NCBI RefSeq assembly: GCF_013315695.1 | Contig: NZ_CP054353.1 | Origin: Escherichia coli | GTDB lineage: Bacteria; Pseudomonadota; Gammaproteobacteria; Enterobacterales; Enterobacteriaceae | DNA length: 64,000 nucleotides | Direction: 5' to 3' (one strand) | Part shown: piece by piece, positions 6,653 to 25,652 of the stretch | How the letters are laid out: each line of letters starts with the position of its first letter | Position numbering within the stretch: position 1 is the first letter of the stretch | Program-made: the position numbers and the translations under genes | The notes under the pieces: generated by a model | What the model saw: the letters and a program-made list of their open reading frames with translations, nothing else | Databases searched by the model: none | What the model was told of the DNA's origin: nothing

Positions 6653-6928
6653 GTGGCTTCTGTTTCTATCAGCTGTCCCTCCTGTTCAGCTACTGACGGG
6701 GTGGTGCGTAACGGCAAAAGCACCGCCGGACATCAGCGCTATCTCTGCTCTCACTGCCGTAAAACATGGCAACTGCAGTTCACTTACACCGCTTCTCAAC
6801 CCGGTACGCACCAGAAAATCATTGATATGGCCATGAATGGCGTTGGATGCCGGGCAACAGCCCGCATTATGGGCGTTGGCCTCAACACGATTTTACGTCA
6901 CTTAAAAAACTCAGGCCGCAGTCGGTAA
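6653..6928 (+). CDS. insA: IS1 InsA (transposition inhibitor / N-terminal part of InsAB transposase)
   Basis: 91-aa [42 protein letters not shown]..., zinc-finger CxxC...CxxC; A6C slippery site ttaaaaaac near its 3-prime end. Confidence 0.95.
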
Positions 6929-7350
6929 CCTCGCGCATACAGCCGGGCAGTGACGTCATCGTCTGCGCGGAAATGGACGAACAGTGGGGCTATGTCGGGG
7001 CTAAATCGCGCCAGCGCTGGCTGTTTTACGCGTATGACAGGCTCCGGAAGACGGTTGTTGCGCACGTATTCGGTGAACGCACTATGGCGACGCTGGGGCG
7101 TCTTATGAGCCTGCTGTCACCCTTTGACGTGGTGATATGGATGACGGATGGCTGGCCGCTGTATGAATCCCGCCTGAAGGGAAAGCTGCACGTAATCAGC
7201 AAGCGATATACGCAGCGAATTGAGCGGCATAACCTGAATCTGAGGCAGCACCTGGCACGGCTGGGACGGAAGTCGCTGTCGTTCTCAAAATCGGTGGAGC
7301 TGCATGACAAAGTCATCGGGCATTATCTGAACATAAAACACTATCAATAA
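6847..7350 (+). CDS. insB: IS1 InsB frame (expressed as InsAB by -1 frameshift)
   Basis: 167-aa ORF in -1 frame relative to insA, ending ...HYLNIKHYQ. Confidence 0.9.
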
Positions 7351-16581: not shown

Positions 16582-16838
16582 CCGCGAAGAATAACGCATC
16601 ACTATTTAAATGTATAATTTTTATTTTGTATATGTCGCCAACAATATATTCACCAGACTTATTATCATTTCAGAAGAATTATTTGATTAAGGTTTTACTT
16701 AAGGCGTAACAAATAATATTTATCGTCTAACTGAACTTCTCCTTTAGGATGCTTTCACTCCCCGAAATGGGGATAAAAGGCAAGGTGATGCTGCCAACTT
16801 ACTGATTTAGTGTATGATGGTGTTTTTGAGGTGCTCCA

Positions 16839-17114
16839 GTGGCTTCTGTTTCTATCAGCTGTCCCTCCTGTTCAGCTACTGACGGGGTGGTGCGTAACGG
16901 CAAAAGCACCGCCGGACATCAGCGCTATCTCTGCTCTCACTGCCGTAAAACATGGCAACTGCAGTTCACTTACACCGCTTCTCAACCCGGTACGCACCAG
17001 AAAATCATTGATATGGCCATGAATGGCGTTGGATGCCGGGCAACAGCCCGCATTATGGGCGTTGGCCTCAACACGATTTTACGTCACTTAAAAAACTCAG
17101 GCCGCAGTCGGTAA
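16839..17114 (+). CDS. insA: IS1 InsA
   Basis: 91-aa ORF identical to the InsA of copy 1. Confidence 0.95.
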
Positions 17115-17536
17115 CCTCGCGCATACAGCCGGGCAGTGACGTCATCGTCTGCGCGGAAATGGACGAACAGTGGGGCTATGTCGGGGCTAAATCGCGCCAG
17201 CGCTGGCTGTTTTACGCGTATGACAGGCTCCGGAAGACGGTTGTTGCGCACGTATTCGGTGAACGCACTATGGCGACGCTGGGGCGTCTTATGAGCCTGC
17301 TGTCACCCTTTGACGTGGTGATATGGATGACGGATGGCTGGCCGCTGTATGAATCCCGCCTGAAGGGAAAGCTGCACGTAATCAGCAAGCGATATACGCA
17401 GCGAATTGAGCGGCATAACCTGAATCTGAGGCAGCACCTGGCACGGCTGGGACGGAAGTCGCTGTCGTTCTCAAAATCGGTGGAGCTGCATGACAAAGTC
17501 ATCGGGCATTATCTGAACATAAAACACTATCAATAA
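17033..17536 (+). CDS. insB: IS1 InsB frame
   Basis: 167-aa ORF identical to the InsB of copy 1. Confidence 0.9.
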
Positions 17537-17551
17537 GTTGGAGTCATTACC

Positions 17552-18357
17552 TCGATTACGGACGTAATTATGGCGTAATGTACGACATCGAAGGCTGGAC
17601 CGATATGCTGCCTGAATTTGGCGGTGACTCTTATACCAATGCAGACAACTTTATGACTGGTCGTGCCAACGGCGTCGCGACTTATCGTAATACTGATTTC
17701 TTCGGTCTGGTAAATGGTCTGAACTTCGCAGTGCAGTATCAAGGTAACAACGAAGGTGCCAGTAATGGTCAGGAAGGCACCAACAACGGACGTGATGTTC
17801 GCCATGAAAACGGTGACGGCTGGGGTCTTTCCACAACATATGATTTAGGCATGGGCTTTAGCGCTGGTGCGGCATACACCTCATCTGACCGCACCAATGA
17901 CCAGGTTAACCATACTGCGGCAGGTGGTGATAAAGCAGACGCGTGGACTGCTGGGCTAAAATACGATGCTAACAATATTTACCTGGCAACCATGTATTCA
18001 GAAACACGTAACATGACCCCGTTTGGCGACAGCGATTATGCAGTTGCGAACAAAACCCAGAACTTTGAAGTTACTGCACAGTACCAGTTTGATTTTGGTC
18101 TGCGTCCGGCAGTCTCTTTCCTGATGTCTAAAGGCCGTGACCTTCACGCTGCCGGTGGTGCAGACAACCCGGCAGGTGTTGATGATAAAGATCTGGTTAA
18201 ATACGCCGATGTTGGCGCGACTTACTATTTCAACAAAAATATGTCCACCTACGTTGACTATAAAATCAACCTGTTGGATGAAGATGACAGCTTCTACGCT
18301 GCCAACGGCATCTCTACCGATGATATTGTCGCTTTAGGTCTGGTTTATCAGTTCTAA
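17552..18357 (+). pseudogene. ompN: Outer-membrane porin OmpN, 5-prime-truncated by IS1 (about 110 N-terminal codons missing)
   Basis: Frame is open from the first base after IS1 (..[25 protein letters not shown]...LGLVYQF*), which aligns to the middle and C-terminus of OmpC-family porins; no signal peptide or promoter remains. Confidence 0.85.
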
Positions 18358-18365
18358 ATCCTCCT

Positions 18366-18390
18366 GCCCGCTGTTATGGCGGGCTTTTTC
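18366..18390 (+). terminator. Rho-independent terminator after ompN
   Basis: Stem gcccgc / gcgggc with 6-nt loop followed by TTTTT. Confidence 0.6.
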
Positions 18391-18416
18391 TGCTTATTCT
18401 TCCTCCTTTGATCTAA

Positions 18417-18932
<516 letters not shown>

Positions 18933-18939
18933 CACTAAC

Positions 18940-18965
18940 GCCCGCACATTGCTGCGGGCTTTTTG
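18940..18965 (+). terminator. Rho-independent terminator after uspF
   Basis: Stem gcccgca / tgcgggc with 6-nt loop followed by TTTTT. Confidence 0.6.
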
Positions 18966-19107
18966 ATTCATTTCGCAAATGTGCTGACATTTTCCCCTCT
19001 AATCCGTACCATACACGCCACAGTTTTTATATCAGATTTCTTATGCTGGGCGTTCCGGCATGACGCATACTCTTCTGATGCCATATAACGAATTGAGTCG
19101 CTTTTAA

Positions 19108-19161
19108 ATGTCGCAAAATCAAGAAATTAGTAAGAAAGAACAATACAACCTGAACAAGTAA
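19108..19161 (+). pseudogene. ttcC: ttcA-like 5-prime fragment marking the prophage attR
   Basis: ATG TCG CAA AAT CAA GAA ATT AGT AAG AAA GAA CAA TAC AAC CTG AAC AAG TAA encodes [17 protein letters not shown], a diverged copy of the TtcA N-terminus ([17 protein letters not shown]) at 33431. Confidence 0.7.
19132..19157. repeat. Prophage attachment core, right copy (26-bp direct repeat)
   Basis: aagaaagaacaatacaacctgaacaa, identical to 33455..33480 inside the ttcA start. Confidence 0.75.
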
Positions 19162-19257
19162 GGGCAAAAATCACAACTCTCTGACTCATAAGTATTTTAC
19201 TTATTTTTCAATGTGTTAAATATCATCAGCGACAACAATAAGCTACGATAACCCACT

Positions 19258-19310
19258 CTTTTTTTGCCCCTTTTTTGCCCCTTTTGCAGCGCTTTGCCCC
19301 ATTTTTGCCA
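19258..19310. repeat. Cluster of four TTTTGCC(CC) direct repeats
   Basis: tttttgcccc ttttttgcccc ttttgcagcgc tttgcccc atttttgcca; between attR and the sitA regulatory region. Confidence 0.4.
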
Positions 19311-19421
19311 TCAACAATTTTCCTCATCAAGTCATTTCAAAGCCTAATAGGTGCCCTACTTTTTTCCTCAGTACCACGTCGCCAGCAGGAAACAACCTAA
19401 TCCCGGTTCGGATCTAAAATT

Positions 19422-19440
19422 GCTAATGATAATCATTTTC
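19422..19440 (+). promoter_or_regulatory. Fur box upstream of sitA
   Basis: gctaatgataatcattttc matches the 19-bp Fur consensus GATAATGATAATCATTATC at 16/19 positions. Confidence 0.6.
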
Positions 19441-19462
19441 ATTTTGTATTGCTTATGCTATA

Positions 19463-19484
19463 AAACATAGCCGTTGCTATGTTT
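19463..19484 (+). promoter_or_regulatory. MntR operator upstream of sitA
   Basis: Perfect palindrome aaacatagc-cgtt-gctatgttt, the MntR-box architecture, 33 bp upstream of the sitA ATG. Confidence 0.7.
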
Positions 19485-19516
19485 GTTCTAATTTTGCTCA
19501 CTATAGGTACTAAATT

Positions 19517-20431
19517 ATGTACTCAATAAAAAAAGTAACCATGCTCTTGGGGTGCCTCGCCCTCACCTGCTCGATCGCATTTCAGGCGAGTGCAACTGAA
19601 AAATTCAAGGTCATTACAACATTTACCATCATCGCAGATATGGCCAAAAACGTGGCTGGAGATGCTGCAGAAGTCTCATCCATAACCAAGCCCGGTGCAG
19701 AAATTCATGAGTATCAGCCTACCCCTGGCGATATTAAACGTGCGCAGGAGGCACAACTGATTCTCGCCAATGGTATGAATCTGGAATTGTGGTTCCAACG
19801 CTTTTACCAGCATCTTAATGGGGTTCCAGAAGTAATTGTCTCTTCGGGTGTGACGCCAGTAGGGATCACTGAAGGCCCCTATGAGGGCAAACCTAACCCC
19901 CATGCCTGGATGTCGCCAGATAATGCTCTGATTTACGTCGATAATATTCGTGATGCGTTGATAAAATACGATCCGGCAAATGCACAAACCTACCAACGTA
20001 ATGCCGATACTTATAAAGCCAAGATTACCCAAACCCTTGCCCCCCTGCGTAAGCAGATTGCTGAACTCCCTGAGAATCAGCGATGGATGGTCACCAGTGA
20101 AGGGGCTTTTTCTTATCTCGCACGCGATTTGGGGCTAAAAGAGCTTTATCTGTGGCCGATTAATGCCGATCAACAAGGCACGCCGCAGCAGGTACGTAAG
20201 GTTGTTGATATGGTGAAGAAAAATCATATCCCGGCAGTCTTTAGCGAGAGTACGATTTCCGATAAACCAGCGCGTCAGGTTGCGCGTGAAACCGGCGCGC
20301 ACTACGGCGGTGTACTCTATGTCGATTCCCTGAGCACAGAAAACGGCCCGGTACCTACGTATATCGACCTTCTGAAGGTTACTACCAGTACGCTGGTACA
20401 GGGAATTAAAGCCGGGAAAAGGGAGAAATAA
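19517..20431 (+). CDS. sitA: Mn/Fe ABC transporter periplasmic substrate-binding protein SitA
   Basis: 304-aa ORF with signal peptide, cluster-9 metal-binding family (SitA/YfeA/MntC-like). Confidence 0.9.
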
Positions 20432-21258
20432 TGATGCAATCTGCGGGCATTGTCGTTAATGATGTTACTGTCACCTGGCGTAACGGGCACACAGCACTGC
20501 GCGATGCATCCTTCACAGTACCAAGTGGATCTATTGCCGCTCTGGTTGGGGTAAACGGTTCCGGAAAATCGACGTTGTTTAAAGCGATTATGGGATTTGT
20601 GCGTCTGACCAGCGGAAAGATATCTGTTCTGGGTATTCCCACGCGACAGGCGCTACAGAAAAACCTGGTTGCCTACGTCCCTCAGTCAGAAGAGGTTGAC
20701 TGGTCATTTCCTGTACTAGTGGAAGATGTGGTGATGATGGGCCGCTATGGGCACATGGGTATGTTGCGTATAGCCAAAAAGAGGGATCGTCAGATTGTCA
20801 CCGATGCGCTGGAACGTGTCGATATGGTGGATTTTCGCCATCGACAAATCGGCGAGCTTTCCGGTGGACAAAAGAAACGCGTCTTTCTGGCGAGAGCGAT
20901 TGCACAGCAGGGTGATGTGATCCTGCTGGATGAACCTTTTACCGGCGTTGATGTGAAAACCGAAGCGAAAATCATCAGCCTGTTGAGGGAGTTACGCGCG
21001 GAAGGCAAGACGATGCTTGTCTCAACGCACAATCTCGGCTCAGTCACGACATTTTGCGATTATACGGTCATGGTCAAAGGCACCGTCCTGGCAAGCGGGC
21101 CGACAGACACCACTTTTACAGCCGAGAACCTGGAGCTGGCTTTTAGCGGCGTACTGCGCCATGTCACACTTAACGCCTCGGAAGAAAGCATTATTACTGA
21201 CGATGAACACCCTTTTGTGGCACATCGACCGTCAGCGGTGCAGAGGGAAGCAAGATGA
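20431..21258 (+). CDS. sitB: Mn/Fe ABC transporter ATP-binding protein SitB
   Basis: 275-aa ORF with Walker [13 protein letters not shown] signature LSGGQKKR and Walker B ILLDEP. Confidence 0.9.
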
Positions 21259-22112
21259 ACGTGCTACTGGAACCCTTCAGCTATGAATATATGCTCAATG
21301 CGATGTGGGTCTCGGCGATGGTCGGCGGTCTCTGCGCTTTCCTGTCATGCTATCTGATGCTAAAAGGCTGGTCGCTGATTGGCGATGCGCTGTCGCACTC
21401 TATTGTCCCGGGTGTTGCGGGGGCATATATGCTGGGGCTTCCGTTTTCTCTGGGAGCCTTCTTTTCCGGCGGACTGGCAGCGGGCAGCATGCTGTTTCTT
21501 AACCAACGCACTCGCTTAAAAGAAGATGCCATCATCGGCCTGATCTTCTCCTCCTTTTTTGGCCTGGGGCTGTTTATGGTGTCATTGAACCCGACATCCG
21601 TGAACATTCAGACCATCGTCCTAGGCAATATTCTGGCAATCGATCCGGCGGATATCCTGCAACTCACTATCATTGGCATTCTCTCGATCATCGTGCTTTT
21701 TTTCAAATGGAAAGATCTTATGGTGACCTTTTTCGACGAGAATCACGCCCGTGCTATTGGATTGCATCCGGGCAGATTAAAAATCCTCTTCTTCACCCTG
21801 CTGTCGGTTTCGACCGTTGCGGCGCTGCAAACGGTTGGTGCCTTTCTGGTGATCTGTCTGGTGGTGACTCCCGGTGCAACAGCATGGTTGTTAACCGATC
21901 GTTTTCCCCGCCTGCTCATAATTGCTGTAACTATTGGCAGTGTAACCAGTTTCCTCGGCGCGTGGGTCAGTTACTTTCTGGACGGCGCGACAGGTGGAAT
22001 CATCGTGGTGGCGCAGACACTGCTGTTTCTTTTAGCATTTGTATTTGCGCCCACCCATGGGCTTTTGGCAAATCGTCGGCGTGCGCATAAAGCGCTGGAG
22101 GATCGCTCATGA
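21255..22112 (+). CDS. sitC: Mn/Fe ABC transporter permease SitC
   Basis: 285-aa polytopic membrane ORF; start overlaps the sitB stop. Confidence 0.9.
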
Positions 22113-22966
22113 TGGCATTATTACTGGAGCCACTGCAGTTCACCTTTATGAGTCACGCACTGCTGATTTCACTGGTAGTTTCCATACCCTGTGCGCTGCT
22201 GTCGGTCTTTCTGGTCCTGAAAGGTTGGGCACTGATGGGTGACGCGATGAGTCATGCGGTTTTTCCTGGCATCGTGCTTGCCTGGATTCTGGGGTTACCT
22301 CTGGCTACAGGGGCATTTATCGCCGGAGTATTCTGCGCGGTGGCGACGGGATACCTGAAAGACAACAGCCGAATCAAGCAAGATACAGTGATGGGGATTG
22401 TTTTTTCTGGCATGTTTGCCGCAGGTCTGATCTTGTATATTGCAGTCAAACCAGACATACATCTTGACCATATTCTTTTCGGCGACATGCTCGGGGTAAC
22501 CATCGGCGATATAATCCAGACGATGATTATTGCCGGGCTGGTTACACTTGTTATTAGCGTAAAATGGCGGGATTTTTTGCTGTTCAGCTTTGATTATCAA
22601 CAGGCGCAGGTAAGCGGTTTGCATACGCGATGGCTGCATTATGGGCTGCTGTGCATGGTTTCCCTGACCATTGTGGCGACGCTGAAAGCAGTAGGTATCA
22701 TTCTCTCCATTTCTCTGCTCATTGCGCCTGGCGCCATTGCGGTACTCCTGACACAACGCTTTCATATTGCACTCCTACTGGCGACTGGCATATCGGTAAT
22801 AGTCTCAATGACTGGTGTTTGGCTGTCCTTTTTTATCGACAGCGCACCCGCTCCGACGATTGTCGTCTTATTCGCGGTTGTGTTCATCATGACGTTTACC
22901 GTTATCAGTTTCAACGCACGCACAAAGGGAAACGCTCATAGACAGGATCTGTTATCCCCCAATTAG
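22109..22966 (+). CDS. sitD: Mn/Fe ABC transporter permease SitD
   Basis: 285-aa polytopic membrane ORF paralogous to SitC; start overlaps the sitC stop. Confidence 0.9.
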   Translation: MMALLLEPLQFTFMSHALLISLVVSIPCALLSVFLVLKGWALMGDAMSHAVFPGIVLAWILGLPLATGAFIAGVFCAVATGYLKDNSRIKQDTVMGIVFSGMFAAGLILYIAVKPDIHLDHILFGDMLGVTIGDIIQTMIIAGLVTLVISVKWRDFLLFSFDYQQAQVSGLHTRWLHYGLLCMVSLTIVATLKAVGIILSISLLIAPGAIAVLLTQRFHIALLLATGISVIVSMTGVWLSFFIDSAPAPTIVVLFAVVFIMTFTVISFNARTKGNAHRQDLLSPN

Positions 22967-23077
22967 CACAACATCCGAGGGCAGCATTGTCCGCTAGTAC
23001 ACTGCAGTCCAGAAAGTCATGGGCGGACGTTGGGAGGAGGCGCTAATCCTTTCATACAAAAAATATGTAAAATCAAT

Positions 23078-23150
23078 AACGGCTGTAAATCATTCAATAC
23101 TCGCACTATCGGAAGTTCACCAGCCAGCCGCAGCACGTTCTTGCATACGA
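23078..23150. repeat. Diverged direct repeat, left copy (3-prime end of a small membrane-protein gene plus downstream sequence)
   Basis: aatcattcaatactcgcactatcg matches 24557..24580 at 22/24; similarity continues through cttgcatacgacgtg. Reverse strand encodes ...LALSIVIGGLVKLKPQTRRMQERAAAGW* with no start codon. Confidence 0.5.
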
Positions 23151-23417
23151 CGTGTCTGCGGTTTCAACTTCACCAGTCCACCAATCACGATGGACAGTGC
23201 CAAGACAGCACTAGCAAAAACAGGAAATTAGCAGTCTCAGCAGAACACCGACCAGACGGTGAAGAAACAAAAAAGGATACGCAAAGGGGCCGCAGTTCCC
23301 GATTGATAAAAAAGCCAGCTTATGCGCTTTTTTTTCATGTATTATTAAGTATTGGTTAGCGTCTTTTTAATCAGAACTTTAAAGACAAGCCATTTGTAAG
23401 AAAACCGACAGATTCGG

Positions 23418-24233
23418 TTGACAAGCAGGAGTAATACTTTGGACATAAGAAAAGATTTGGAATCAGTAGCCCAATATATAAGTAGACTGTTATCGATAGG
23501 GTACGAATTTAGCCGTTTTGATAAAGACTGGGTCCATTTAAAAAATGAAGAGGATTTTCGTTTTATTTCAAGAATACCATTTGCAACACGGAATAAAGTG
23601 GAAGCAGTATATGCGGAAGGCAGAGATATGGCACTTTATATGTCTGATGAGTTACTATCCATTAATAGTGATTTCAGTAAATTTCCAACGTTGACAGCTA
23701 TTATCGAAAGATTCAAGGACACTTGGGTTTATGGTAATTATGATTCGGAAGTGCCAAATATAGCTAAAAAAACATGCGAAGAAAATGCAGTTCAGCTTTG
23801 GTCTGTAGAACAGATGTGTTCCTTATTCAAAAAGCAAGAACAACTATTAGCAGCAGTACGTATCACATTGCAGATGCTACAAGATAGTGACCTATACAAG
23901 ATGGAGAATGGTTTACCTCTTATGAAACAAGAAGCTAATATTCATGTCAGTGGAATTTCCGGTTCTAGTATCAATATACATTCTTCAGGTGCTACGGCAA
24001 CTACTACGACAAATTATAATGAGCCCACAATATTTAATGAAATGATTGAGGCAATAAAATCGAAAAACTTTGATGGCGCGACAGAATCACACCTTATAGA
24101 TAATGTACAGGCACTGGCAGCCAGTCACCAAAGCGGCTGTTTTAAAGAAGCATATAAGGACTTTATTAATAATGTATCTGCACACATTACAGTATTTACT
24201 CCATTTCTTGCTGGCATATCATCTTTACTATAA
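23418..24233 (+). CDS. Orphan hypothetical protein in AT-rich islet (function unknown)
   Basis: 271-aa ORF from the track; no in-frame ATG near the 5-prime end, likely start TTG at 23439 with AGGAG 8 nt upstream; AT-rich codon usage unlike flanking genes; C-terminal low-complexity Ser/Thr stretch and hydrophobic tail. Confidence 0.5.
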   Translation: MTSRSNTLDIRKDLESVAQYISRLLSIGYEFSRFDKDWVHLKNEEDFRFISRIPFATRNKVEAVYAEGRDMALYMSDELLSINSDFSKFPTLTAIIERFKDTWVYGNYDSEVPNIAKKTCEENAVQLWSVEQMCSLFKKQEQLLAAVRITLQMLQDSDLYKMENGLPLMKQEANIHVSGISGSSINIHSSGATATTTTNYNEPTIFNEMIEAIKSKNFDGATESHLIDNVQALAASHQSGCFKEAYKDFINNVSAHITVFTPFLAGISSLL

Positions 24234-24556
24234 AATAAGTGACAGATACATTAATACATAACGAAAAATCTTTTTAGCTACTCATTCATATCAATAGTGC
24301 CCTACCATAGGGCACATTATTCGTGGAACTCGTTTATGACAAAAGAATTTTGATGGTCTGCCTGATGCAACAGATATAATTCTGGGAGTGTTGAGTAAGA
24401 GTATTCACCGGCGCTCAACACAAATGCCAGCAAGCACGAGAAAGAGCAGGTAAGCCTGAGTGTTCAGGAAATGTTTGAAAAGGCTAATATGTGGCTGGTT
24501 TCAGATTAAACGCCTTGAACCGTCATATTACTTAAGTACAATCCGCCTAGACTAGC

Positions 24557-24630
24557 AATCATTCAATAGTAGCACTATCGAGCGCTCGCCAGTCGAGCGC
24601 AATCATGCTCCTTGCATACGGCGTGCAGCA
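24557..24630. repeat. Diverged direct repeat, right copy
   Basis: aatcattcaatagtagcactatcg ... cttgcatacggcgtg; partner of 23078..23150. Confidence 0.5.
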
Positions 24631-24778
24631 TATCACAAAACGATTACGCCATGACGGACTGCAGGCTACTCAATATCTGGCTCGATTAGCGTATTGGCAT
24701 GATTTAACAGACCCCGGCGCTTATTCCCAGCAACCTGAAGCGGCACCTCTTCCTGTGTTGCGTTTACAACTCCCTTTT

Positions 24779-25072
24779 TCACCCACGATTAACCAACAGC
24801 CAGACCAGCAGACAAGCCACCACCGGCACAGAAAAATCCATCAGGCTTGCCACATCCCACACGCGCGGATCAAAACCACCCCACCACGGCATATTCATAC
24901 GCTTGCCATGCCCGAACATTTCAATCCAGCGATATTCTGCCTGGGTATGTTCACGAGCAATGAAGAACGTACAACCGGCTATCGCCCCGTAAGCCCAGTT
25001 TCCGGTAAAAAGACCAACCAGTACCTGCGCAGCCACAGCACAAAGTGCATGAAGGAAAGGTGTTATATCCAT
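24779..25072 (-). CDS. Small hydrophobic (probable inner-membrane) protein, function unknown
   Basis: ORF track 24779..25087; ATG at 25070-25072 preceded by AGGA; MDITPFLHALCAVAAQVLVGLF... with about three predicted TM segments; its C-terminus is homologous to the fragment encoded by the left direct repeat. Confidence 0.5.
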   Translation of the reverse strand: MDITPFLHALCAVAAQVLVGLFTGNWAYGAIAGCTFFIAREHTQAEYRWIEMFGHGKRMNMPWWGGFDPRVWDVASLMDFSVPVVACLLVWLLVNRG

Positions 25073-25148
25073 TTTCATCCTACCCAATAAAACGAGGCGC
25101 TCGGCCCCTTAATATTATTTAGACGCAAGCGTCGGTAATGACTCCAAC

Positions 25149-25652
25149 TTATTGATAGTGTTTTATGTTCAGATAATGCCCGATGACTTTGTCATGCAGC
25201 TCCACCGATTTTGAGAACGACAGCGACTTCCGTCCCAGCCGTGCCAGGTGCTGCCTCAGATTCAGGTTATGCCGCTCAATTCGCTGCGTATATCGCTTGC
25301 TGATTACGTGCAGCTTTCCCTTCAGGCGGGATTCATACAGCGGCCAGCCATCCGTCATCCATATCACCACGTCAAAGGGTGACAGCAGGCTCATAAGACG
25401 CCCCAGCGTCGCCATAGTGCGTTCACCGAATACGTGCGCAACAACCGTCTTCCGGAGCCTGTCATACGCGTAAAACAGCCAGCGCTGGCGCGATTTAGCC
25501 CCGACATAGCCCCACTGTTCGTCCATTTCCGCGCAGACGATGACGTCACTGCCCGGCTGTATGCGCGAGGTTACCGACTGCGGCCTGAGTTTTTTAAGTG
25601 ACGTAAAATCGTGTTGAGGCCAACGCCCATAATGCGGGCTGTTGCCCGGCAT
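25149..25652 (-). CDS. insB: IS1 InsB frame
   Basis: 167-aa ORF identical to the other InsB copies. Confidence 0.9.

Follow-up and report, generated by a model that had tools for sequence, protein, structure and literature searches.

A probable Fur- and MntR-controlled promoter of the sitABCD operon at a prophage end in Escherichia coli

How is the sitABCD operon of this E. coli genome regulated, and did its regulation arrive with the operon or evolve in the host afterwards? The question is raised by the DNA just upstream of sitA in the stretch of 64,000 nucleotides analysed here (the window), where an initial annotation had proposed sites for two metal-responsive repressors, Fur and MntR. 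What lies there is very probably the promoter of the operon for the SitABCD manganese/iron ABC importer, under the dual control of these two proteins. Below we describe the operon and its surroundings, the sequence elements upstream of sitA, their conservation, and the other readings that the elements might allow.

The operon is intact (19517-22966), with overlapping stops and starts of successive open reading frames, and has the make-up of a SitABCD/YfeABCD-type importer. Its genes are as follows.

19517-20431, + strand: sitA, periplasmic Mn/Fe-binding protein, 304 aa; belongs to Mn/Fe substrate-binding-protein families and is called sitA by PGAP in a 99.8% identical locus
20431-21258, + strand: sitB, ABC ATPase, 275 aa; matches the equivalog NF011630 with 589.8 bits against a cutoff of 393
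21255-22112, + strand: sitC, permease, 285 aa; belongs to metal ABC permease families and is annotated as sitC in the 99.8% identical locus
22109-22966, + strand: sitD, permease, 285 aa; belongs to metal ABC permease families and is annotated as sitD in the 99.8% identical locus

The locus used for these comparisons is that of E. coli 7/2, to which the window is 99.8% identical from 17552 to 25134; there PGAP calls sitA, sitB, sitC and sitD, and a lambdoid prophage comes next. The genes upstream of sit are uspF, which ends about 530 bp upstream, and ompN, which is interrupted by IS1. E. coli K-12 is without sit: homology to K-12 ends at about 19310-19317, and in K-12 uspF is followed by the right end of the Rac prophage. 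The transporter had been described as acquired, and the surroundings bear this out, sit being cargo at the end of a prophage, beside uspF.

The neighborhood has some further features. Three copies of IS1 are present in the window, one at 16784-17551 and two represented by transposase reading frames at 6847-7350 and 25149-25652, a pattern typical of an IS1-rich E. coli or Shigella-like lineage. Compared with E. coli 7/2, the ompN region with its IS1 lacks about 354 bp. The IS1 at about 25135 cuts short the prophage that carries sit and connects the remnant to the Rac genes sieB, racC, kilR and recE. At 19260-19309, close to the uspF/sit junction and on its K-12-homologous side, is a tandem array of the 11-bp unit TTTTTTGCCCC (2.4 perfect and about 4.8 degenerate copies), which may have a connection with the attachment junction of the prophage. 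Downstream of sitD, two open reading frames (23418-24233, 271 aa, and 24605-25090, 161 aa) have no NCBIfam match; in E. coli 7/2 the counterpart of the 271-aa frame is a "hypothetical protein," followed by a frameshifted DinI-like gene. Both frames are probably prophage cargo.

Between the uspF junction and the sitA start codon, the elements that matter for regulation lie close together and in part overlap.

19422-19440: candidate Fur box, GCTAATGATAATCATTTTC, 17/19 against the consensus GATAATGATAATCATTATC
19436-19441, + strand: inferred -35 element, TTTTCA (4/6), inside the 3' end of the Fur box and 17 bp upstream of TATAAA
19448-19461: upstream MntR-type palindrome (P1), degenerate, ATTGC-TTAT-GCTAT, 9/10 of the ATAGC-N4-GCTAT core
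19456-19464, + strand: inferred extended -10 element, TGcTATAAA, with the hexamer (5/6) at 19459-19464
19463-19484: downstream palindrome (P2), candidate MntR operator, whole site AAACATAGCCGTTGCTATGTTT, that is, AAACATAGC-CGTT-GCTATGTTT, with its core at 19467-19480
19469-19472 (near 19471), + strand: predicted transcription start, about 7 nt past the -10 element and inside P2, placed from the position of the -10 element only
19505-19507, + strand: Shine-Dalgarno-like AGG, 10 nt before the ATG, read from the sequence

The Fur box answers to each of the descriptions by which an enterobacterial Fur operator is recognized, the 19-bp consensus and either hexamers or 7-1-7 repeats. The classical F-F-x-R hexamers read GCTAAT-GATAAT-C-ATTTTC, with scores of 5/6, 6/6 and 5/6, and two overlapping 7-1-7 motifs are present, TGCTAATgATAATCA at 19421 (12/14) and TGATAATcATTTTCA at 19427 (13/14). 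Allowing up to three mismatches, the consensus has a single match in the 64-kb window, where 0.06 would be expected. The sequence and coordinates of the box had been given exactly in the initial annotation; its score had been put at 16/19 and is 17/19. The box begins 95 bp upstream of the sitA ATG (19517) and P2 begins 54 bp upstream of it, which agrees with the claim that both sites start within 100 bp of the gene.

P2 had been described as a perfect MntR palindrome, again with the correct sequence and coordinates, and the 9-4-9 structure is confirmed: the arms are perfectly complementary over 9 + 9 bp around a 4-bp spacer, with no complementarity beyond. P2 thus has the inverted repeat expected of an enterobacterial MntR operator. 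Against the pattern AAACATAGC-N4-GCTATGTTT it scores 18/18 arm positions and is the sole match in 64 kb (expected, 0.02). A literature search with the operator string AACATAGC returned nothing relevant.

A close known counterpart is found upstream of mntH in K-12. This gene was reportedly placed under dual repression by Fe-Fur and Mn-MntR by Patzer and Hantke in 2001. Its upstream region reads ...aatttgataatcattctcg...AAACATAGCAAAGGCTATGTTTtagaggcacaagATG and contains the palindrome AAACATAGCAAAGGCTATGTTT, which we take to be the MntR operator. The reverse complement of P2, AAACATAGCAACGGCTATGTTT, is identical to it at 21 of 22 positions, with identical arms, and as at sitA a Fur box precedes the palindrome of the form AAACATAGC-N4-GCTATGTTT. 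The two promoters are not alike in all respects: mntH has one full palindrome and an upstream CATAGC half-site, whereas at sitA there is a pair of palindromes with a 19-bp phasing. Reviews credit mntH with two further controls, an OxyR site in E. coli and, in Salmonella, a Mn riboswitch (PMC9315381 for the riboswitch); neither is detectable at the sitA promoter of the window. A search of 19000-19700 gave no match to the yybP-ykoY Mn riboswitch or to any other Rfam family at E up to 1.

The position of the core promoter relative to these sites was assigned by manual reading and by conservation. A generic sigma-70 consensus scan called no promoter on the + strand, that of sitA included; the scanner missed the extended -10 element because position 6 of the hexamer is A. 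The -35, -10 and start positions therefore stand here as inferred from sequence, and what recommends them is how they sit in the orthologues. The -10 element takes its TAT from the right arm of P1, and the T at position 4 of the P1 spacer, which creates the TGn of the extended -10 element, is conserved in most orthologues. The equivalent of the -35 element, where it can be recognized, keeps its place in the ungapped alignment and reads TTTTCA, TTTGCA, TTGTCA or TTGCCA; it is not recognizable in Erwinia mallotivora and Erwinia persicina. Downstream of P2 the sequence is not conserved, which argues against a promoter there.

With the promoter so placed, repression could proceed as follows. Fe(II)-Fur bound to the box at 19422-19440, which overlaps the -35 element as inferred from sequence and conservation, would occlude that element. 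Mn(II)-MntR bound to P2 at 19463-19484 would cover the transcription start, and MntR bound also to the weaker P1 at 19448-19461, as is probable, would fill the spacer and the -10 region. Since the repressor sites cover the whole of the core promoter, sitABCD would be transcribed only when iron and/or manganese is scarce. The Fe/Mn-responsive repression of sitA predicted in the initial annotation is supported by the sequence as well as by reviews of the sit operons of Salmonella and Shigella.

P1 was missed earlier; the sitA promoter has not one MntR-type palindrome but two in tandem, and their spacing appears to be a fixed property of the promoter. We compared 26 sitA promoters of Enterobacterales, 20 of them from outside E. 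coli (Enterobacter, Lelliottia, Pluralibacter, Shimwellia, Citrobacter, Cedecea, Klebsiella, Erwinia and Pantoea), drawn from a genome scan at one genome per species among the loci listed (at least 80). The comparison stands apart from the Salmonella promoter, there being no Salmonella among the best 120 protein-search matches or the listed scan loci. P1 precedes P2 by exactly 19 bp in the window, and a palindrome scoring at least 8/10 is found at exactly this distance in all 26 promoters examined. In the 20 non-E. coli promoters two ATAGC-N4-GCTAT palindromes are exactly 19 bp apart without exception, and there is not one insertion or deletion across the promoter block, whose ungapped consensus is AAATGAnAATTATTTnCATTT-N5-ATAGCnTnTGCTAT-N5-ATAGC-N4-GCTAT. 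A Fur-like box is recognizable 26-27 bp upstream of the first palindrome in 16 of the 20 (the four others being Erwinia mallotivora, Erwinia persicina, Pantoea 1.19 and Pantoea Mb-10), and where present it follows the consensus AAATGAnAATTATTTnCATTT and keeps a constant distance to the palindromes. The palindromes are absent from the more distant sitA promoters examined, those of alpha-proteobacteria (rhizobia), Pseudomonas and others.

The pattern of conservation within the palindromes is informative. In the P2 core, four of the five pair positions never vary in the orthologues and the spacer does. The ATAGC/GCTAT cores show no compensatory changes, the bases outside them are non-complementary in the orthologues, and the spacers are free. 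The arms behave as a protein-binding site, with the sequence conservation that one would look for in an MntR operator.

Within E. coli the same module is found in very different company. Seven sit alleles, 86-100% identical to one another, occur in at least four insertion contexts, on chromosomes and on plasmids (ColV-type). Between the Fur box and the ATG hardly any position varies among them, while further upstream they are divergent or unrelated, from which it would follow that the regulatory module moves with the operon. The homology common to all sit alleles starts about 135 bp upstream of the ATG (at about 19383), some 35 bp before the Fur box, which suggests that the mobile unit consists of the promoter-operator module and the four genes only. 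Of 5426 complete E. coli genomes, 2348 contain the 121-bp promoter, which occupies 1679 places on chromosomes and 990 on plasmids.

These distributions bear on the second half of our opening question. The acquired transporter had been said to be under the control of host regulators. As far as the regulators go this is probably apt: fur is a core E. coli gene, and mntR is found in 5421 of the 5426 complete genomes, although neither gene is inside the 64-kb window. It is not apt for the operators, which came with the mobile cassette rather than being imposed later by the host. As they are part of that cassette and are common to orthologues in other genera, the regulation was probably inherited with the DNA and did not evolve in the host after acquisition.

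What the second palindrome might add is a more delicate matter. P1 is probably bound by MntR, as a second and weaker site, and binding to P1 and P2 may be cooperative. The right arm of P1 also serves as the -10 element, so that part of the conservation of P1 could reflect constraint on the promoter instead of MntR binding. The alleles of E. coli each have one perfect site and one site of 9/10, and they differ in which of the two is weakened. The mismatch in the P1 of the window (ATTGC) is unique to this allele; other chromosomal E. coli alleles have ATAGG in P1, and in the common ColV-type plasmid allele (pTHO-010-3) P1 is perfect and P2 is 9/10 (ATAGT). The chromosomal alleles thus weaken P1 and those of the pTHO-010-3 type weaken P2. 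In the Citrobacter-type promoters, too, the upstream palindrome is the weaker one (8-9/10), and the downstream palindrome has the spacer AAAG. Tentatively, and at less than even chances, the Fur box and the two MntR palindromes 19 bp apart may constitute a fixed module throughout the Enterobacterales, in which two MntR dimers bind cooperatively and make the response to manganese steeper, or its threshold lower, than at mntH; the weakening of P1 or P2 could then tune the manganese sensitivity of chromosomal versus plasmid copies. We found no description of the tandem 19-bp arrangement in the literature searched, where the original sit promoter papers were represented by reviews. The conserved tandem of MntR-type palindromes and its allele-specific weakening is the sole point of this analysis that is possibly new, and it is a minor refinement.

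A further likeness is found at mntS (rybA) of K-12, the promoter of which was reportedly found to be MntR-repressed by Waters et al. in 2011. The mntS promoter contains ATAGCCTGTGCTAT, which is the same as the perfect P1 of many sitA promoters and agrees base for base with the upstream sitA palindrome of Enterobacter, Lelliottia, Pluralibacter, Shimwellia and Erwinia persicina; in the window P1 is degenerate (ATTGC). Unlike sitA, mntS lacks both a Fur box and a second palindrome at +19. It has been proposed that mntS descended from the 5' end of sitA and kept its MntR control (bioRxiv 10.1101/2023.06.02.543501). The presence of ATAGCCTGTGCTAT in both promoters would be independent support for this origin, from a cis-element.

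Could the palindromes belong to another regulator? They might be bound by OxyR or by some other protein that recognizes ATAG/CTAT, or Fur alone might mediate the responses to both iron and manganese, as at yfe of Yersinia, leaving MntR without a role. The OxyR consensus, too, includes ATAG/CTAT elements. A review places OxyR elements in the sit promoter of Salmonella (PMC9315381), and in Yersinia, which is without MntR, Fur represses yfeABCD with both metals (PMC3852070). In the window, however, the best score of the OxyR motif ATAGnTnnnAnCTAT-N7-ATAGnTnnnAnCTAT between 19300 and 19500 is 12/20, a score that occurs about 50 times over the whole window, and a phasing of 19 bp is at odds with the 22-bp repeat of OxyR. 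An OxyR site at the sitA promoter was rejected, its best score being that of the background. The near identity of P2 to the mntH palindrome and the core status of mntR in E. coli likewise speak against a regulator other than MntR, and the reviews assign the manganese repression of the Salmonella and Shigella sit operons to MntR (PMC3852070, PMC8970401). We consider this reading very improbable, if a shade less so than the two that follow.

The 9-4-9 palindrome could in principle work as RNA, in a hairpin that terminates or attenuates transcription from upstream or that structures the 5' UTR, and not as a DNA operator. In a terminator scan, 19463-19484 was picked out as a stem-loop with GTTCTAATTT after it, and the minimum free energy fold of 19455-19520 includes the hairpin. 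The stem, however, has only three G-C pairs in nine, the tail GTTCTAATTT is not a run of T, and the fold is ordinary for its composition (z = -1.0, with 32 of 200 shuffles folding equally well); a rho-independent terminator was rejected on these grounds, for a stem that is not G+C-rich, the lack of a U run, and a fold no better than that of shuffles. The conservation runs the other way from that of an RNA stem, the inner 5 bp being kept in sequence without compensatory changes and the outer complementarity being lost. Moreover, with the predicted start inside P2 the transcript would carry only half of the palindrome, and the end of uspF is about 530 bp upstream. The hairpin has only the slightest chance of being the right reading.

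Equally slight is the chance that the motifs are inherited relics, non-functional in this IS1-rich genome, with the operon constitutive or silent: the locus does lie amid IS1 insertions and deletions that have disrupted ompN and truncated the prophage, and the P1 mismatch is unique to this allele, but the promoter and the four genes are intact and 99.8% identical to those of E. coli 7/2, 324 records contain the 121-bp promoter at 99% identity or more, and the Fur box and P2 of the window match as well as or better than those of any orthologue.

The reading that we favor, a sitABCD promoter repressed by both Fur and MntR, is also what would be expected from relatives. The sitABCD promoter of S. 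Typhimurium is said to be the subject of Ikeda et al. 2005 (J Bacteriol 187:912), and that of Shigella flexneri of Runyen-Janecky et al. 2006 (Infect Immun 74:4666). The Citrobacter-type promoters of our comparison may be the nearest available relatives of the Salmonella sitA promoter. Per reviews, the operon is the same in Salmonella enterica serovar Typhimurium and Shigella flexneri and is under the same dual control by Fe-Fur and Mn-MntR, exerted at promoter sites (PMC3852070, PMC9315381, PMC8970401). Mn-MntR represses MntH and SitABCD (PMC3852070, citing Patzer and Hantke, 2001; Ikeda, 2005, for Salmonella; Runyen-Janecky, 2006, for Shigella flexneri). The Salmonella sit promoter has MntR and Fur elements and sit is Fur-regulated (PMC9315381); in a Salmonella fur mutant sitA is up 53.8-fold, with MntR listed as a co-regulator (PMC3212961). 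With a sitA-lacZ fusion in an rpoS background, full expression was seen only when both fur and mntR were deleted (PMC8970401), and sitABCD has been described as a member of the MntR mini-regulon that is also regulated by Fur (PMC8432900). The window has the E. coli/Shigella-type sit allele, beside uspF at a prophage end, and no substantive difference from the Salmonella and Shigella promoters is known, the likeness being drawn via the reviews.

In closing, the interpretation of the Fur and MntR sites at sitA is right and is already known: as Fur/MntR control of sitABCD had been published in the same or close organisms, the earlier prediction is a re-derivation. The value of the present analysis is mainly one of annotation, with nothing new on regulation. 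Judged from its sequence, the sit operon of this genome would have an intact, canonical metal-responsive switch, at a virulence-associated Mn/Fe importer that is found in 43% of complete E. coli genomes. Two points of modest value go beyond the single locus. A tandem MntR-type site is conserved in all the Enterobacterales promoters examined, and the regulatory module travels with the cassette between prophages, plasmids and genera.
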